IMG/VR virus record: IMGVR_UViG_3300009185_000001
Coordinates: 138,881 to 202,880 of that record
Direction: 5' to 3' (one strand)
Length of the DNA: 64,000 nt
DNA from: a virus
Taxonomy: Duplodnaviria; Caudoviricetes
In this document: positions 40,076 to 43,170 of the stretch, one piece after another
How the letters are laid out: each line of letters begins with the position of its first letter
How positions within the stretch are numbered: position 1 is the first letter of the stretch
Notes under the pieces: generated by a model
What the model was told of the DNA's origin: nothing
Database searches by the model: none
Seen by the model: only the letters and a program-made list of their open reading frames with translations
Translations under genes and position numbers: made by a program

Positions 40076-40100
40076 CTTTACCGGAAATTTGAAATATAGT
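40072..40100 (+). promoter_or_regulatory. sigma70-type promoter driving the RNA island
   Basis: TTGACT-ttaccggaaatttgaaa(17)-TATAGT. Confidence 0.7.
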
Positions 40101-40136
40101 CCTATACATGATTTCGAATGACAAAGCTTGGTTGGT

Positions 40137-40262
40137 AAATAATAAGAGTTTCTGTGGTGGTTACTCTTATTATTTCGGAAGTCCTACCTTCTGTGGTGGT
40201 AGGTAGGACTTCCTTAAATTTGTGAGTTGGTTCCCGATGAGCCAATGGGACTGGGAATACTC
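40137..40262 (+). ncRNA. Candidate sRNA: two perfect 13-bp hairpins with an identical loop motif plus possible pseudoknot
   Basis: AAATAATAAGAGT/ACTCTTATTATTT and GGAAGTCCTACCT/AGGTAGGACTTCC, both carrying TTCTGTGGTGGT. Confidence 0.6.
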
Positions 40263-40634
40263 GGTCGAAACCAAAATCGGAAATTGATATTTGACATTTT
40301 AATTTTTTGGTAGATAGAGTAGTAATACCTATCCCTGTGGACTCGAAAGAGGAGTGATATCTGAAAAGAAGCGTTTCGAGAGTATTCGCACTCACTTACC
40401 AAATAATATTTTAAACCCGCCATGCCTCTGCTTGCAAGAGTAGTTTCTGAAGGCCAAGGCAACTAAGCAAGTCATGCATAATTTGGCGGGTGTTTTTATC
40501 AAGCGCAGATGCTATTTAAAAAGCTCTACCGCGACAGATGACAATGCAATGTTTCCGGAAACAACATTTAATCTGTAGGGAACTTCTCCTTAATAATCAA
40601 AAAAGAATGAGAAGTCTTGGTAATAAATTTAAAT

Positions 40635-40721
40635 GGGTTACTATACCGTTAAAGAGGCGGTCCAGACTGTAAATCTGGCGTGTTCTGCACTCACTAGGAG
40701 CATTACCTAGGTAGCCCACCA
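40635..40721 (+). tRNA. tRNA-Tyr(GUA), type II, non-canonical T loop
   Basis: GGGTTAC/GTAGCCC acceptor, CCAGA-CTGTAAA-TCTGG, variable arm, CTAGG-AGCATTA-CCTAG, encoded ACCA. Confidence 0.8.
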
Positions 40722-41135
40722 TTTTAATATAGAAAGAATAGATAGTGTTAGTAATAAATTTTGACTGGGATGTTGGTCTAGAAAATCATCATCTAAGGAG
40801 TGGAACTGGACGTGGAGAACTGGTAATTAGTAGGGACACAATTCATATAAGCCCTACATCCTATTTATAGGTACGGAGATGACCGTGAATTGCGTTTCAC
40901 AGGATAGAGAAATCTATAACCCCTTTAGCTTTAAAAAGCACACCAGTTTATTTTTGATAAGTCGGACGGGGAATGTGTGCTGTGCATTCTTAAAAAGCTC
41001 ACCGTTGCAGACGTATCACCAGACCCGATTAGGCAGGGGGTAACAAGTAACCTTCGTCCAACGTGTTAAAAACACGGTAGCCAATGAAGAGCTTTCTGGA
41101 ATTGATATTTAAAATTATATTGTAAATAGTTTATA

Positions 41136-41208
41136 TGCGGGTTACAGTTCTGGCGAACTGAGGGGTTTCATAAGCCTCTTTAGGTGGATTCGATTTCCAC
41201 ACCCGCAA
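41136..41208 (+). tRNA. tRNA-Met/Ile2 (CAU)
   Basis: TGCGGGT/ACCCGCA acceptor, loop TTCATAA, GTGGA-TTCGATT-TCCAC; no encoded CCA. Confidence 0.85.
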
Positions 41209-41216
41209 TTTTTAAT

Positions 41217-41349
41217 TCCTCATTAGACGAATTGGTAAAGTCACGGGACTGTGGGAGAAGCAGGTTAGCGTAATATGAGTTCGATTCTCATAACTCCAAG
41301 TCTAATCCCGCGCAGCAATGCATTCTTCGTTCAAGTCGAAGATGAGGAG
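41217..41349 (+). tRNA. tRNA-Ser(GCU)-like with ~50-nt insertion in the anticodon
   Basis: TCCTCAT/ATGAGGA acceptor, G73, D arm GAC/GTC, CGGGA/TCCCG anticodon stem, GCA-GCAA-TGC variable arm, CTTCG-TTCAAGT-CGAAG. Confidence 0.75.
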
Positions 41350-41513
41350 CATTTTAGAATAGATAAAAAGGTTCTCGATGATCCAGATAAAAAAAATCGA
41401 AAATACTTCTTGACCTTTTCAGAAAAAATTGTTAGAGTATTTGAAGATTAGTAAAGGTTATCTGAACCTTGTAAAAAAATCAGAAAAGATTTTTGATAGA
41501 ATAGAATTTATAT

Positions 41514-41856
41514 GGTCGAGTGGTGGAATGGCAGACACAACGGACTTAGAGAAATTTGAGCTTTGATTGGGAAACCTTTCAAATGTAACTTGTCAAATTC
41601 GGTGAAGGGTTTAAACTCCTAATACCGAGCCAAGCATCGAAAGATGAAGGTGTAGAGACTTGACGGCAAGAACCTAAAGCGAAAGCAATGGTTAAGGTAA
41701 AGTCCAGACTACAAACAGATTGAGAAAAGTAAATCCCGAAAGGATTGAACAGAGCGGTAAATACGCTGACTGACGAATCTGGTAACGAAAGTTATAGTAG
41801 TAAGAAAATCCGTTGCCAGTAATGGCGTGAGGATTCGAGTTCCTCCTCGACTACCA
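41514..41856 (+). tRNA. tRNA-Leu(UAA) split by a group I intron
   Basis: Exons 41514-41547 (…ACGGACTT) and 41805-41856 (AAAATCCGT…CTCGACTACCA) join to give a type II cloverleaf with loop CUUAAAA. Confidence 0.92.
41548..41804 (+). ncRNA. Group I intron (trnL-UAA / IC3-type position), 257 nt, no ORF
   Basis: P AAATTCGGTGAA, Q AATACCGAGCCAAG, R GGTGTAGAGACT, S AAGGTAAAGTCC; follows U34; ends in G; ACTAC/GTAGT P9.0. Confidence 0.92.
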
Positions 41857-41864
41857 ATTTAAAA

Positions 41865-41958
41865 GCAAGGTTAGTGTAACTGGAAGCACCGACAGACTTA
41901 TAATCTGTGTATCCTAGATTTGGATCGAGCGTGGGTTCAATTCCCACACCTTGCACCA
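41865..41958 (+). tRNA. tRNA-Ile(UAU)-like with long variable arm
   Basis: GCAAGGT/ACCTTGC, ACAGA-CTTATAA-TCTGT, 22-nt extra arm (ATCC/GGAT), GTGGG-TTCAATT-CCCAC, ACCA. Confidence 0.75.
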
Positions 41959-41981
41959 TTTTGTAAGTAGTTGATTTAGAT

Positions 41982-42053
41982 AGGGGTGAAGCATATTGGT
42001 CATGCGCTCTGCTCATAACGGAAGGAAAGTGGGTTCGATCCCCATCGCCCCTA
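41982..42053 (+). tRNA. tRNA-Met(CAU), elongator-like
   Basis: AGGGGTG/CGCCCCT, loop CTCATAA, GTGGG-TTCGATC-CCCAT. Confidence 0.85.
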
Positions 42054-42065
42054 CATTTTTCATAA

Positions 42066-42150
42066 GCACTTGTAACTCAACGCTCTTCTAAAGCGTCCTT
42101 TAACGAGTAATTGGATATAAGGTCTGTTGGTTCGAATCCAACCAAGTGCG
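42066..42150 (+). tRNA. Atypical tRNA-Arg(UCU)-like RNA with rearranged D/anticodon region
   Basis: Perfect acceptor GCACTTG/CAAGTGC, T arm GTTGG-TTCGAAT-CCAAC and anticodon arm ACGCT-CTTCTAA-AGCGT; D elements out of order. Confidence 0.7.
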
Positions 42151-42324
42151 CTTAATAAACAAAATACAGGTTCAAATCTCATTTCAATACAATGCCCCAC
42201 AAAAAACCCAAACCCTCCCACAAAGAAATTCTAAAATATCTGGAATTTCTTTCCTCAATCAAAAAAGTAAAGCCTTCTAAAACTCTCTTGACACCCAAGA
42301 AAAACTAACATACCATCTAACATC

Positions 42325-42633
42325 ATGGATATACTAAGAATCCTCCCAAAGGGAGAAAACATTGAAAACATAATAGAATCATTTAGAAGTACTTTAATCA
42401 ATTCTAAATGTGAACATTCTGCCAAGGTGTCGGTTTTCGTAGTAACAAAAGAAAAGTTTGAAAGGTCATGGAATTTAATATATCCAAACAATGAAGATGC
42501 CTTGTTGGAATCCTTGAAGAAAGAATATTTGGAATTGATTAACCAGAGACGAGTAACCGTAACAGTGGCAGAGGAAGAGAATTATTTTTTAAAAAACATT
42601 AAAAAAAATATTGACGAGAACGATATTTTTTAA
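42325..42633 (+). CDS. Hypothetical protein
   Basis: 102-aa ORF. Confidence 0.5.
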   Translation: MDILRILPKGENIENIIESFRSTLINSKCEHSAKVSVFVVTKEKFERSWNLIYPNNEDALLESLKKEYLELINQRRVTVTVAEEENYFLKNIKKNIDENDIF

Positions 42634-42645
42634 TACATTCAAATT

Positions 42646-42810
42646 ATGGAAGAAAACTACATCAAACTAATAAGCAAATACGGAAATCAAAAAGTGGAAT
42701 TCACAATTGATCCCGACATTGACATGACAGTAATGGTATCAACTCTGGAATGCTTCTTGAAAGCTATTGGATACCAATTCAATACACTGGAGGAATGGAT
42801 TAACGAATAA
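42646..42810 (+). CDS. 54-aa protein (not in ORF track)
   Basis: MEENYIKLISKYGNQKVEF...; fills the gap between co-oriented ORFs. Confidence 0.5.
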   Translation: MEENYIKLISKYGNQKVEFTIDPDIDMTVMVSTLECFLKAIGYQFNTLEEWINE

Positions 42811-42811
42811 T

Positions 42812-43170
42812 ATGAAACTAAAAGACATTGAAATACCAGATGGGCCAGTACTGGCAATTTTAGGATTTGGCTGCATATATTTTGGTGCTTGTTTGTTGGG
42901 CCTGACAATGACAATCGTCAAAGCAATTGCACTATACTTCTTTAACTATACTATTACAATCGGAGGAATACCACTATGAAAAGTAATGATATGCTTTTTA
43001 CCGGATTCGGATTAATTCTATTTGGAATCGGACTTCTTCTTATCAGTCCCTTCCTCTTGATATGGTCGGTGAATGGATTGTTTGGATTGACAATTCCTTT
43101 CACATGGACAAATTGGTTCTATGCCTTCATCATTATTATGTTGCTCCGAGGAAGTATTAGTAGCAAGTGA
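42812..43170 (+). CDS. Two small overlapping membrane proteins (42812-42979, 42976-43170)
   Basis: Hydrophobic helices; ATGA overlap. Confidence 0.55.

Follow-up and report, generated by a model that had tools for sequence, protein, structure and literature searches.

A tRNA-shaped 50-nt insert in the anticodon loop of a phage tRNA gene, probably tRNA-Asn, and its possible removal by proteins

The IMG/VR record IMGVR_UViG_3300009185_000001, of a freshwater phage, is 202,880 bp long and has direct terminal repeats. Its final 64 kb (hereafter the window, to which positions without a prefix refer) contain a tRNA gene whose anticodon loop is split by a 50-nt insert that itself has the shape of a tRNA without an anticodon arm. 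The insert is very probably a real, conserved, intron-like element within an intact tRNA gene. The existence of the interrupted gene, the fold of its insert, the membership of that insert in a family of mini-tRNAs, the regularity of its boundaries and the presence of RNA ligases in the phage are established here. Taken as a whole, the explanation that we favour, in which the gene specifies tRNA-Asn(GUU) and the mini-tRNA would be removed by tRNA-end enzymes and its flanks joined by a ligase, stands at about an even chance of being correct.

When introns are allowed (-i), ARAGORN places a tRNA at 41217-41350 whose anticodon loop is interrupted by an intron of 50 nt; in default mode it misses the gene, as does Rfam at gathering score. 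ARAGORN's own label is Arg(UCU), one of the four excision registers (UCU, GCU, GUU and GUG) that a first-pass annotation of the window had correctly listed. A single sequence cannot decide among these registers; comparison favours removal of 41253-41302, which gives GUU, rather than the limits 41252-41301 (GCU) of the first-pass annotation. In the favoured register, the 5' exon (41217-41252, + strand; placed by ARAGORN -i and by alignment with related genes in contigs L224 and L231, its end being set by the boundary rule of the family) comprises the acceptor 5' strand, the D-arm, the 5' strand of the anticodon stem and the loop nucleotides C32, U33, G34 and U35. The 3' exon (41303-41349, + strand; from the sequence and ARAGORN) continues with U36, A37 and A38, the 3' strand of the anticodon stem, a 14-nt variable region, the T-arm, the acceptor 3' strand and G73, with no encoded CCA. 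The outer tRNA thus assembled has an acceptor stem TCCTCAT/ATGAGGA followed by G73, a D-arm GAC(G)...GTC, an anticodon stem CGGGA/TCCCG and a T-arm CTTCG-TTCAAGT-CGAAG. Both 83-nt spliced forms, in the GCU or the GUU register, fold by minimum free energy (MFE) as a perfect cloverleaf; the junction word would be GGGACTGT joined to TAATCCCG in the Asn register and GGGACTG joined to CTAATCCCG in the Ser register.

The insert (41253-41302, + strand; delimited by a covariance model, R1, by covariation and by its MFE fold) spans positions +1 to 76 of a tRNA-like fold from which the anticodon arm is missing. Its acceptor-like 5' strand, GGGAGAA (41253-41259, +; as read from the sequence and from L224 and L231), has G1 opposite A72, a paired GGAG/CTCC and two A-A oppositions; there follow a D-like hairpin GC-AGGTTA-GC that carries the GG of a D-loop (41260-41269, +) and a T-arm ATGAG-TTCGATT-CTCAT (41275-41291, +), the stem of which reaches 6 bp when T41274-A41292 is added. 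The acceptor-like 3' strand AACTCCA, with A41299 as the equivalent of a discriminator, is followed by GTC at positions 74-76 (41292-41302, +), a layout shared with the inserts of L224, L231, L008 and L093. All the stems that the first-pass annotation had described, in the outer tRNA as well as the closing stem, D-like hairpin and T-arm of the insert, are present in the sequence. Folded alone, the insert adopts exactly the proposed mini-tRNA as its MFE structure (GGAG/CUCC, GC-closed hairpin, 6-bp T-stem; -9.5 kcal/mol).

Comparative evidence of covariation is what makes the insert more than a chance resemblance. Relatives were sought with a pattern consisting of the D-like hairpin and the T-loop of the insert at a spacing too short for an anticodon arm, and at least 30 structured mini-tRNA copies were found across viral and metagenome contigs. 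In the viral contigs, all 16 pattern matches are structured, having a paired T-stem and closing stems that differ in sequence, and the variant hairpin GCAGGTTTGC occurs in eight further places; in the metagenome contigs, at least about ten structured copies stand among the matches listed, amid many chance matches. The 596 Gb of bacterial and archaeal genomes gave 53 pattern matches, none of them structured; indeed, all of these, and most of the metagenome matches listed, are chance occurrences of the 17-18-base pattern in coding DNA, without stems. Members of the R1 family are recognised by a closing acceptor-like stem of 6-7 positions, directly next to which lies a D-like hairpin of 2 bp (GC-AGGTTA-GC); a linker of 5-6 nt then leads to a 5-bp T-stem with a TTCGATT loop. 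When 25 copies were realigned to R1, 91.4% of the cells were paired, where shuffles reached 59.6% and slid controls 33-42%, and 12 of the 14 base pairs show compensatory changes. The search pattern fixed the hairpin and T-loop only, leaving the closing stem and T-stem free, and it is these two helices that covary. R1 scores the window insert at 49.3 bits, this copy having been part of the building of the model; L224 and L231, which were absent from it, score 25.9 and 28.3 bits (E ~1e-6 to 1e-7). The tRNA-elbow shape, originally read from one sequence, is therefore a conserved, covarying feature. The phage itself carries a single copy, according to a genome search with R1.

Most members of the family (at least 20) are free-standing and fewer lie inside anticodon loops, six of which are known: the window copy and those of L008, L020, L093, L224 and L231. 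The first-pass annotation had suggested looking for homologous inserts in other phage tRNAs and had taken their absence as grounds for refutation; the last five are such inserts. For comparison of the boundaries, each insert was anchored on its D-like hairpin and the preceding 7 nt were taken as the acceptor 5' strand. Five of the six inserts then show one and the same layout: position +1 comes after exactly four nucleotides of the loop (CUNN), the 7-position acceptor abuts the D hairpin, and N73 plus three nucleotides is followed by UAA before the anticodon stem. With these flanks, removal of +1 to 76 leaves a 7-nt loop; in other words, excision from the window gene, L008, L093, L224 or L231 restores a 7-nt anticodon loop with U33 and a purine at 37 in an otherwise complete cloverleaf. 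The 3' tails of the inserts differ (A+GAG in L224, A+AAG in L231 and in L008), that of L093 being A+CCA, a literal CCA. For L093, the +1-to-76 register alone yields the Lys anticodon UUU, and its 3' half matches annotated phage tRNA-Lys genes, while for L008 the rule yields CAU, the same as ARAGORN's call; blastn of the L008 outer tRNA against phage records gave mixed Thr, Lys and Met matches.

The register 41253-41302 places the insert between U35 and U36 and gives the spliced loop CUGUUAA, identical to that of E. coli asnT, so that the outer tRNA is probably Asn(GUU), as judged by comparison of sequences. In this regard, the window acceptor (UCCUCAU...G73) shares its first five pairs with that of asnT (UCCUCUG...G73), and U1-A72 and G73 are present as in bacterial tRNA-Asn, with the register for GUU being inferred. 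One megaphage tRNA-Asn begins UCCUCAG. Among the tRNAs of the examined loci, U1 is found in four of seven Asn and in none of five Ser tRNAs. The inserts of L224 and L231 are homologous to that of the window, with the arrangement CUGU, then GGGA...CCA-A-NNN, then UAA; in all three the initial GGGA, G1 opposite A72 and A7 opposite A66 are conserved, and pair 5-68 varies as G-C, A-U and U-A. The outer tRNAs of L224 and L231 belong to class I and carry U1-A72 and G73, ARAGORN names that of L231 Asn(gtt), and all three genes read GUU in the +1-to-76 register. Moreover, a relative of the phage, L007 (upstream protein 76% identical), has an ordinary tRNA-Asn(GUU) in the same slot, directly ahead of the conserved spacer and promoter. 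When the two exons were compared with phage records by blastn, the best match of the 5' half was to tRNA-Asn at E=1, the others being to D-arms of tRNA-Glu.

The three interrupted Asn genes also indicate that the tRNA is under selection. In their alignment, 97.8% of the cells of the nested structure are paired, and 18 of 31 pairs have changed on both sides, 14 of these in the four helices of the outer tRNA. A killed gene would not keep its helices through compensatory changes, and hence the interrupted Asn gene does not appear to be decaying. The argument is weaker if the three insertions are recent and independent, in which case the element would seem to select intact tRNA-Asn at one exact position.

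How the insert might be removed is suggested by where it ends. Its ends coincide with those of a mature tRNA, and the parts of it that are conserved are those read by tRNA-processing enzymes, namely the elbow (the GG of the D-like loop and TTCGATT) and the coaxial acceptor/T stack; it is from boundaries at +1 and 76 that we infer a pathway of tRNA-end enzymes. The tRNA end-processing machinery of the cell would recognise the elbow of the insert, RNase P would cleave 5' of G41253 to leave the 5' exon with a 3'-OH, and a 3' tRNA endonuclease would cleave after C41302, a hydrolytic cut giving the 3' exon a 5'-phosphate. The tRNA halves, held by base-pairing within the outer cloverleaf and bearing 3'-OH and 5'-phosphate ends, would then be sealed by an ATP-dependent RNA ligase. 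RNase P is known to cleave minimal acceptor/T-arm substrates, and T4 Rnl1, which is known for sealing nicks in anticodon loops, takes 3'-OH/5'-phosphate ends of this kind as its substrate. In vivo as well as in vitro, RNase P cleaves an internal tRNA-like module in the YrlA RNA of M. smegmatis, the determinant being its acceptor stem of 7 bp (PMC4201824). That proteins splice the interrupted tRNA is slightly favoured; the particular combination of RNase P, a 3' tRNase and an Rnl-type ligase is put forward tentatively, as possible rather than probable. The earlier reading of the insert as a protein-processed mini-intron using a tRNA elbow is still a plausible one, and it now has a concrete boundary rule.

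The candidate ligases are both encoded by the phage. One, at genome C1:42388-43485 on the minus strand, is a homologue of T4 Rnl1 (PF09511 at 48 bits in the genome search; PDB 2C5U, E 5e-10; phrog_562, E 2e-40), to which hmmscan against Pfam assigned no family although the genome search, PHROGs and PDB identify it; the other, at C1:11545-12558, is an Rnl2-like ligase. The Rnl1 homologue adjoins a calcineurin-like metallophosphoesterase (the two together at genome C1:42388-44516, outside the window), which may, by analogy with bacterial Pnkp-type RNA repair, be its end-healing partner. The phage genome holds no RtcB (PF01139), no tRNA splicing endonuclease (tRNA_int_endo, PF01974), no CCA-adding enzyme and no RNase III. 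Thus, among the enzymes that the first-pass annotation had proposed to look for, the Rnl ligases are present and RtcB and the tRNA splicing endonuclease are absent, and its idea of a ligase is supported, since both phage enzymes are of a type able to close nicks in an anticodon loop. Rnl1 was sought without success in the contigs of the other five intron-bearing tRNAs, but these are 4-7% fragments and its absence from them carries no weight.

Several observations weigh against the explanation just given. The fold energy of the insert is ordinary, in that 31% of shuffles fold equally well, and the case for it consequently rests on comparison rather than on thermodynamics. The boundary rule in turn rests on six cases, L020 departs from it by one nucleotide, and in three of the cases the 5' side was fixed by the search pattern (CTGT plus 7 nt). 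L224 and L231 are among these three; for both, neither the 3' side nor which tRNA encloses the insert was constrained. The variable region of the window tRNA, at 14 nt, lies outside the 4-5 nt of class I, compared with 5 nt in L224, L231 and asnT, and together with G73 it could mean a Ser identity. The acceptor of the insert is weak (four Watson-Crick pairs, G1 opposite A72, two A-A oppositions), so that recognition by RNase P is not assured. Moreover, canonical RNase Z cleaves after N73 and not after 76; ordinary processing by RNases P and Z would leave a 10-nt loop, and an unusual 3' nuclease is needed. The introns of Lak megaphages, compared below, have a different geometry, and a single mechanism may not fit them all. 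Finally, in the contigs of three lake metatranscriptomes (X4, X5 and X21) that were compared with 41000-42200, alongside those of a metagenome (X2), there is no RNA coverage of 41123-41368. A promoter-like site at 41410-41438 immediately precedes the point, about 41443, from which the RNA contigs run; another such site (a consensus match only) lies at 41102-41130, upstream of the tRNA-Met gene and the interrupted tRNA.

The identity first proposed for the gene, a type II tRNA-Ser(GCU) with an intron at 41252-41301 between nucleotides 34 and 35, also removed by proteins, draws on real features of the sequence. The 14-nt variable region has a 3-bp stem which, with G73, matches the Ser rule, short though the arm is for Ser, and seryl-tRNA synthetase (SerRS) recognises the long arm and not the anticodon. 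The GCU spliced form folds as a cloverleaf equally well, and the insert in that register has an 8-position stem (U-A, G.A, GGAG/CUCC...) with a 2-nt 3' overhang. A reading of the boundaries as RNase III-like, with an 8-bp stem and 2-nt overhang, amounts to the same register and was rejected since the homologues contradict it: applied to L224 and L231, the GCU register gives GGU (Thr), unfit for their Asn-like bodies. In addition, U1-A72 and C2-G71 in the interrupted tRNA are not the G1-C72 and G2-C71 of the Ser type, as seen in the phage's own tRNA-Ser(UGA), which begins GGAUGAU, and are unlike all five Ser tRNAs of the examined loci. The neighbouring tRNA(UAU) likewise has a long extra arm, from which it follows that long arms are no mark of Ser, Leu or Tyr in this phage. 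The Asn-type acceptor (U1-A72, G73), the alignment to L224 and L231 and the boundary rule all point to GUU; a Ser identity is therefore held to be unlikely, this particular Ser(GCU) intron being also improbable, and what probability remains after Asn and Ser belongs to some other function of the outer tRNA or to none. A different possibility is that the RNA is not spliced at all, a mobile mini-tRNA having entered the anticodon loop cleanly and inactivated the tRNA, or the locus working unspliced, with the mini-tRNA and the two halves set free as products by RNase P and 3' processing, or with the whole RNA serving as a tRNA look-alike or decoy. The module is mostly free-standing (some copies in arrays, some just upstream of ribosome-binding sites), which implies that the mini-tRNA has a function of its own. 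Mobility is suggested by the near-identical inserts of L008 and L020, which lie in two different tRNAs (a scan for further copies of this insert found only those two), and spliced RNA was not seen, in RNA contigs that do not cover this gene. Opposed to this are the outer helices kept through compensatory changes in three diverged genes, a point which loses force under recent, independent insertion as noted above, and the residual loop, which in five of six genes has exactly 7 nt with U33 and A37, since a dead gene would not hold both features. Absence of splicing is a minority view, though one with appreciable weight.

Removal by RNA catalysis, through a small self-cleaving ribozyme or through splicing in trans by the neighbouring group I intron or a large non-coding RNA upstream, appears very improbable. 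In its favour, a working group I intron, spliced in three metatranscriptomes, lies 200 nt downstream, and immediately upstream is a stretch of about 1 kb that lacks ORFs and is highly expressed; with the UCU register, moreover, the last letter is U for the 5' exon and G for the insert, as for group I. That register is, however, contradicted by the homologues; the conserved parts of the insert are tRNA features and not a catalytic core; such neighbours are not known at the other insert hosts (L008, L020, L093, L224 and L231); and a cmscan to E<=10 over 40500-43000 found no self-cleaving ribozyme (hammerhead, twister, pistol, hatchet or hairpin). A group I or II intron in the insert itself was rejected, as the first-pass annotation had anticipated on grounds of length: the insert has 50 nt, compared with at least about 200 nt for a P3-P9 core, and no Rfam ribozyme match at E<=10. 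Size is the decisive argument against group I, because the neighbouring intron, a genuine member of that group, also went unrecognised by Rfam. Least credible of all is a route of archaeal or eukaryal type, in which a bulge-helix-bulge (BHB) motif is cut by an EndA-type endonuclease and the ends are joined by RtcB. A short, protein-dependent intron in an anticodon loop would suit it, and RtcB could come from the host. The first-pass annotation had seen no clear BHB and, indeed, no 3-nt bulge, 4-bp helix and 3-nt bulge can be drawn at either splice site. Furthermore, the insert lies at 35/36 and not at 37/38, both enzymes are missing from the phage, and bacteria are not known to possess EndA.

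The interrupted gene is the second of a tRNA cluster at 41136-42150, which comprises, in order, tRNA-Met(CAU), the interrupted tRNA, tRNA-Leu(UAA), tRNA(UAU), a second tRNA-Met and a D-arm-less tRNA(UCU). The tRNA-Met(CAU) gene (41136-41208, +; ARAGORN) lies 8 nt upstream of the interrupted tRNA, with which it is probably co-transcribed. About 200 nt downstream, tRNA-Leu(UAA) (41514-41856) contains a 257-nt group I intron that has no Rfam group I match even at E<=10; the joint 41547 to 41805 was found in all three metatranscriptome runs, meaning that this intron is spliced, and one contig continues into the next tRNA. That next gene, tRNA(UAU) (41865-41958; Rfam tRNA, 51 bits), has A73, its CCA is encoded, and its variable arm measures about 21 nt; taken with the 14-nt region of the interrupted tRNA, this suggests an enlargement of variable loops in the class I tRNAs of the phage. 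The tRNA(UCU) gene (42066-42150; Rfam tRNA, 35.5 bits) has no normal D-arm; the 27-nt region that follows its anticodon arm includes a string resembling a D-loop. Upstream of the cluster, 40100-41120 is about 1 kb with no credible ORF, in which hairpins are numerous and the motif TTAAAAAGC is repeated; in two metatranscriptomes the depth of RNA contigs over 41000-41081 reaches about 300, and the sole Rfam hint in the region, an abiF RNA at 40416-40491, falls below threshold (28 bits; cut-off 37). The downstream ORF (42325-42630) has no relative in the viral contigs. The upstream ORF has two there, of which L006 ends before the tRNAs and L007 has a different tRNA in the slot. In L007 (6437-6496 and 7190-7696), an intron-less tRNA-Leu(UAA) is preceded by an HNH endonuclease ORF, and about 1 kb upstream lie 60 nt that match part of the group I intron at 93% identity, which points to gain or loss of that intron in this lineage.

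The mini-tRNA family, known so far from phage and metagenome contigs alone, occurs elsewhere in several arrangements. Free-standing copies are found in tRNA clusters, for example in L022. In a 67-kb phage contig, the record of L009 (L203, ~1050-2710; C1:58451-60109), there are about ten tandem acceptor-plus-T-arm minihelices or mini-tRNAs of 42-50 nt, of which only some units have the D-like hairpin. In L021:4264-4473 and L023:1767-1965, free-standing mini-tRNAs follow a hairpin directly, and a hydrophobic ORF of 45-49 residues starts 14 nt beyond them; the same arrangement is seen in L024, L037, L048 and L086, and these mini-tRNAs may be RNase P-type processing signals in an mRNA leader. Exact-pattern scans of the viral contigs with the 3' half of the insert and with the 5' exon gave no match, so that a close relative of this exact gene is absent from that collection. 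Among cultured-phage records, blastn of the insert gave weak T-arm matches only (Otagovirus phages and Lak-A2; E 0.4-5), with no tRNA called there by ARAGORN. Pseudomonas phage PE09 (93.2 kb) contains, at L196:1440-1560, an unannotated tRNA-like RNA with no ARAGORN call, having an acceptor CACTAGG/CCTAGTG, an odd middle part and a T-arm identical to that of the insert (ATGAG-TTCGATT-CTCAT).

Of the systems with which the window insert may be compared, that of T4 shares the ligase family (the PDB 2C5U match) and the nick in the anticodon loop of a folded tRNA. In T4, the break is damage by the host nuclease PrrC, and the cyclic-phosphate and 5'-OH ends need healing before Rnl1 (with Pnkp) can act; the break in the window tRNA would instead be programmed, and already 3'-OH/5'-phosphate if RNase P-type enzymes make the cuts. 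Group I introns in the anticodon loops of bacterial and phage tRNAs are alike in gene type, location and mobility, but are self-splicing ribozymes of at least 200 nt, whereas the insert has 50 nt and no catalytic core. The BHB introns of archaea and eukaryotes (EndA/TSEN with RtcB or Trl1) are also short and protein-dependent; they differ in position, in a motif that the window does not have, in enzymes that the phage does not encode, and in belonging to another domain of life. Embedded tRNA-like processing signals are found in the MALAT1 mascRNA and the tRNA-miRNA precursors of MHV68. The YrlA Y RNAs of bacteria and phages likewise hold a non-decoding acceptor/D/T elbow within a longer RNA that is cut by RNase P (PMC4201824). 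In all three of these the flanks are not re-joined, in contrast to those in the window, which are tRNA halves needing ligation. The nearest likeness, and the only published precedent found in literature searches for tRNA-shaped phage introns, is that of the Lak megaphages, the 'enigmatic' tRNA introns of which have no Rfam match and include one that could, in the authors' view, code for a tRNA of its own (Devoto et al. 2019, Nat Microbiol, Fig. 4, Table S6; PMC6784885); that paper proposes no mechanism for them. There, as in the window, a phage anticodon loop is split by a short non-ribozyme insert with a tRNA-like fold. The Lak introns are nevertheless longer (79-114 nt) with a 5' hairpin leader, the tRNA-Thr one having a full tRNA-like module with an anticodon arm (Table S6), and by our reading of that table they lie at 36/37 and end at N73 or N73+1; the window insert has 50 nt, no leader and no anticodon arm, lies at 35/36 and spans +1 to 76. 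It is, in other words, a compact variant of a barely described kind of phage tRNA intron.

The significance of the insert lies first in what it implies for tRNA splicing. Bacteria and their viruses are not known to remove tRNA introns other than by self-splicing, and phage ligases of the Rnl1 and Rnl2 types have until now been known only as repair enzymes. A conserved 50-nt insert that is not self-splicing, in tRNA genes under structural selection, implies protein-dependent splicing in the bacterial world. There may tentatively be seen here, at less than an even chance, a third kind of tRNA splicing in phages of bacteria, in which neither a ribozyme nor a BHB endonuclease but tRNA-end enzymes and an Rnl1/Rnl2-type ligase would take part. 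The +1-to-76 span, with the literal CCA of L093, further suggests an origin for such introns: a free-standing mini-tRNA, already mature, may have been joined by ligation into an anticodon loop that had been broken, with a DNA copy made afterwards. The +1-to-76 boundary rule turns the published observation of enigmatic introns into a concrete hypothesis, and the introns are tied to a larger, undescribed family of mini-tRNAs that stand free in the genomes of phages. In annotation, standard bacterial tRNA finders miss such genes and intron-aware finders choose arbitrary registers. If the proposal is true, phage RNA ligases would gain a housekeeping role beside that of repair, and the maturation of a phage tRNA would depend on a phage enzyme.

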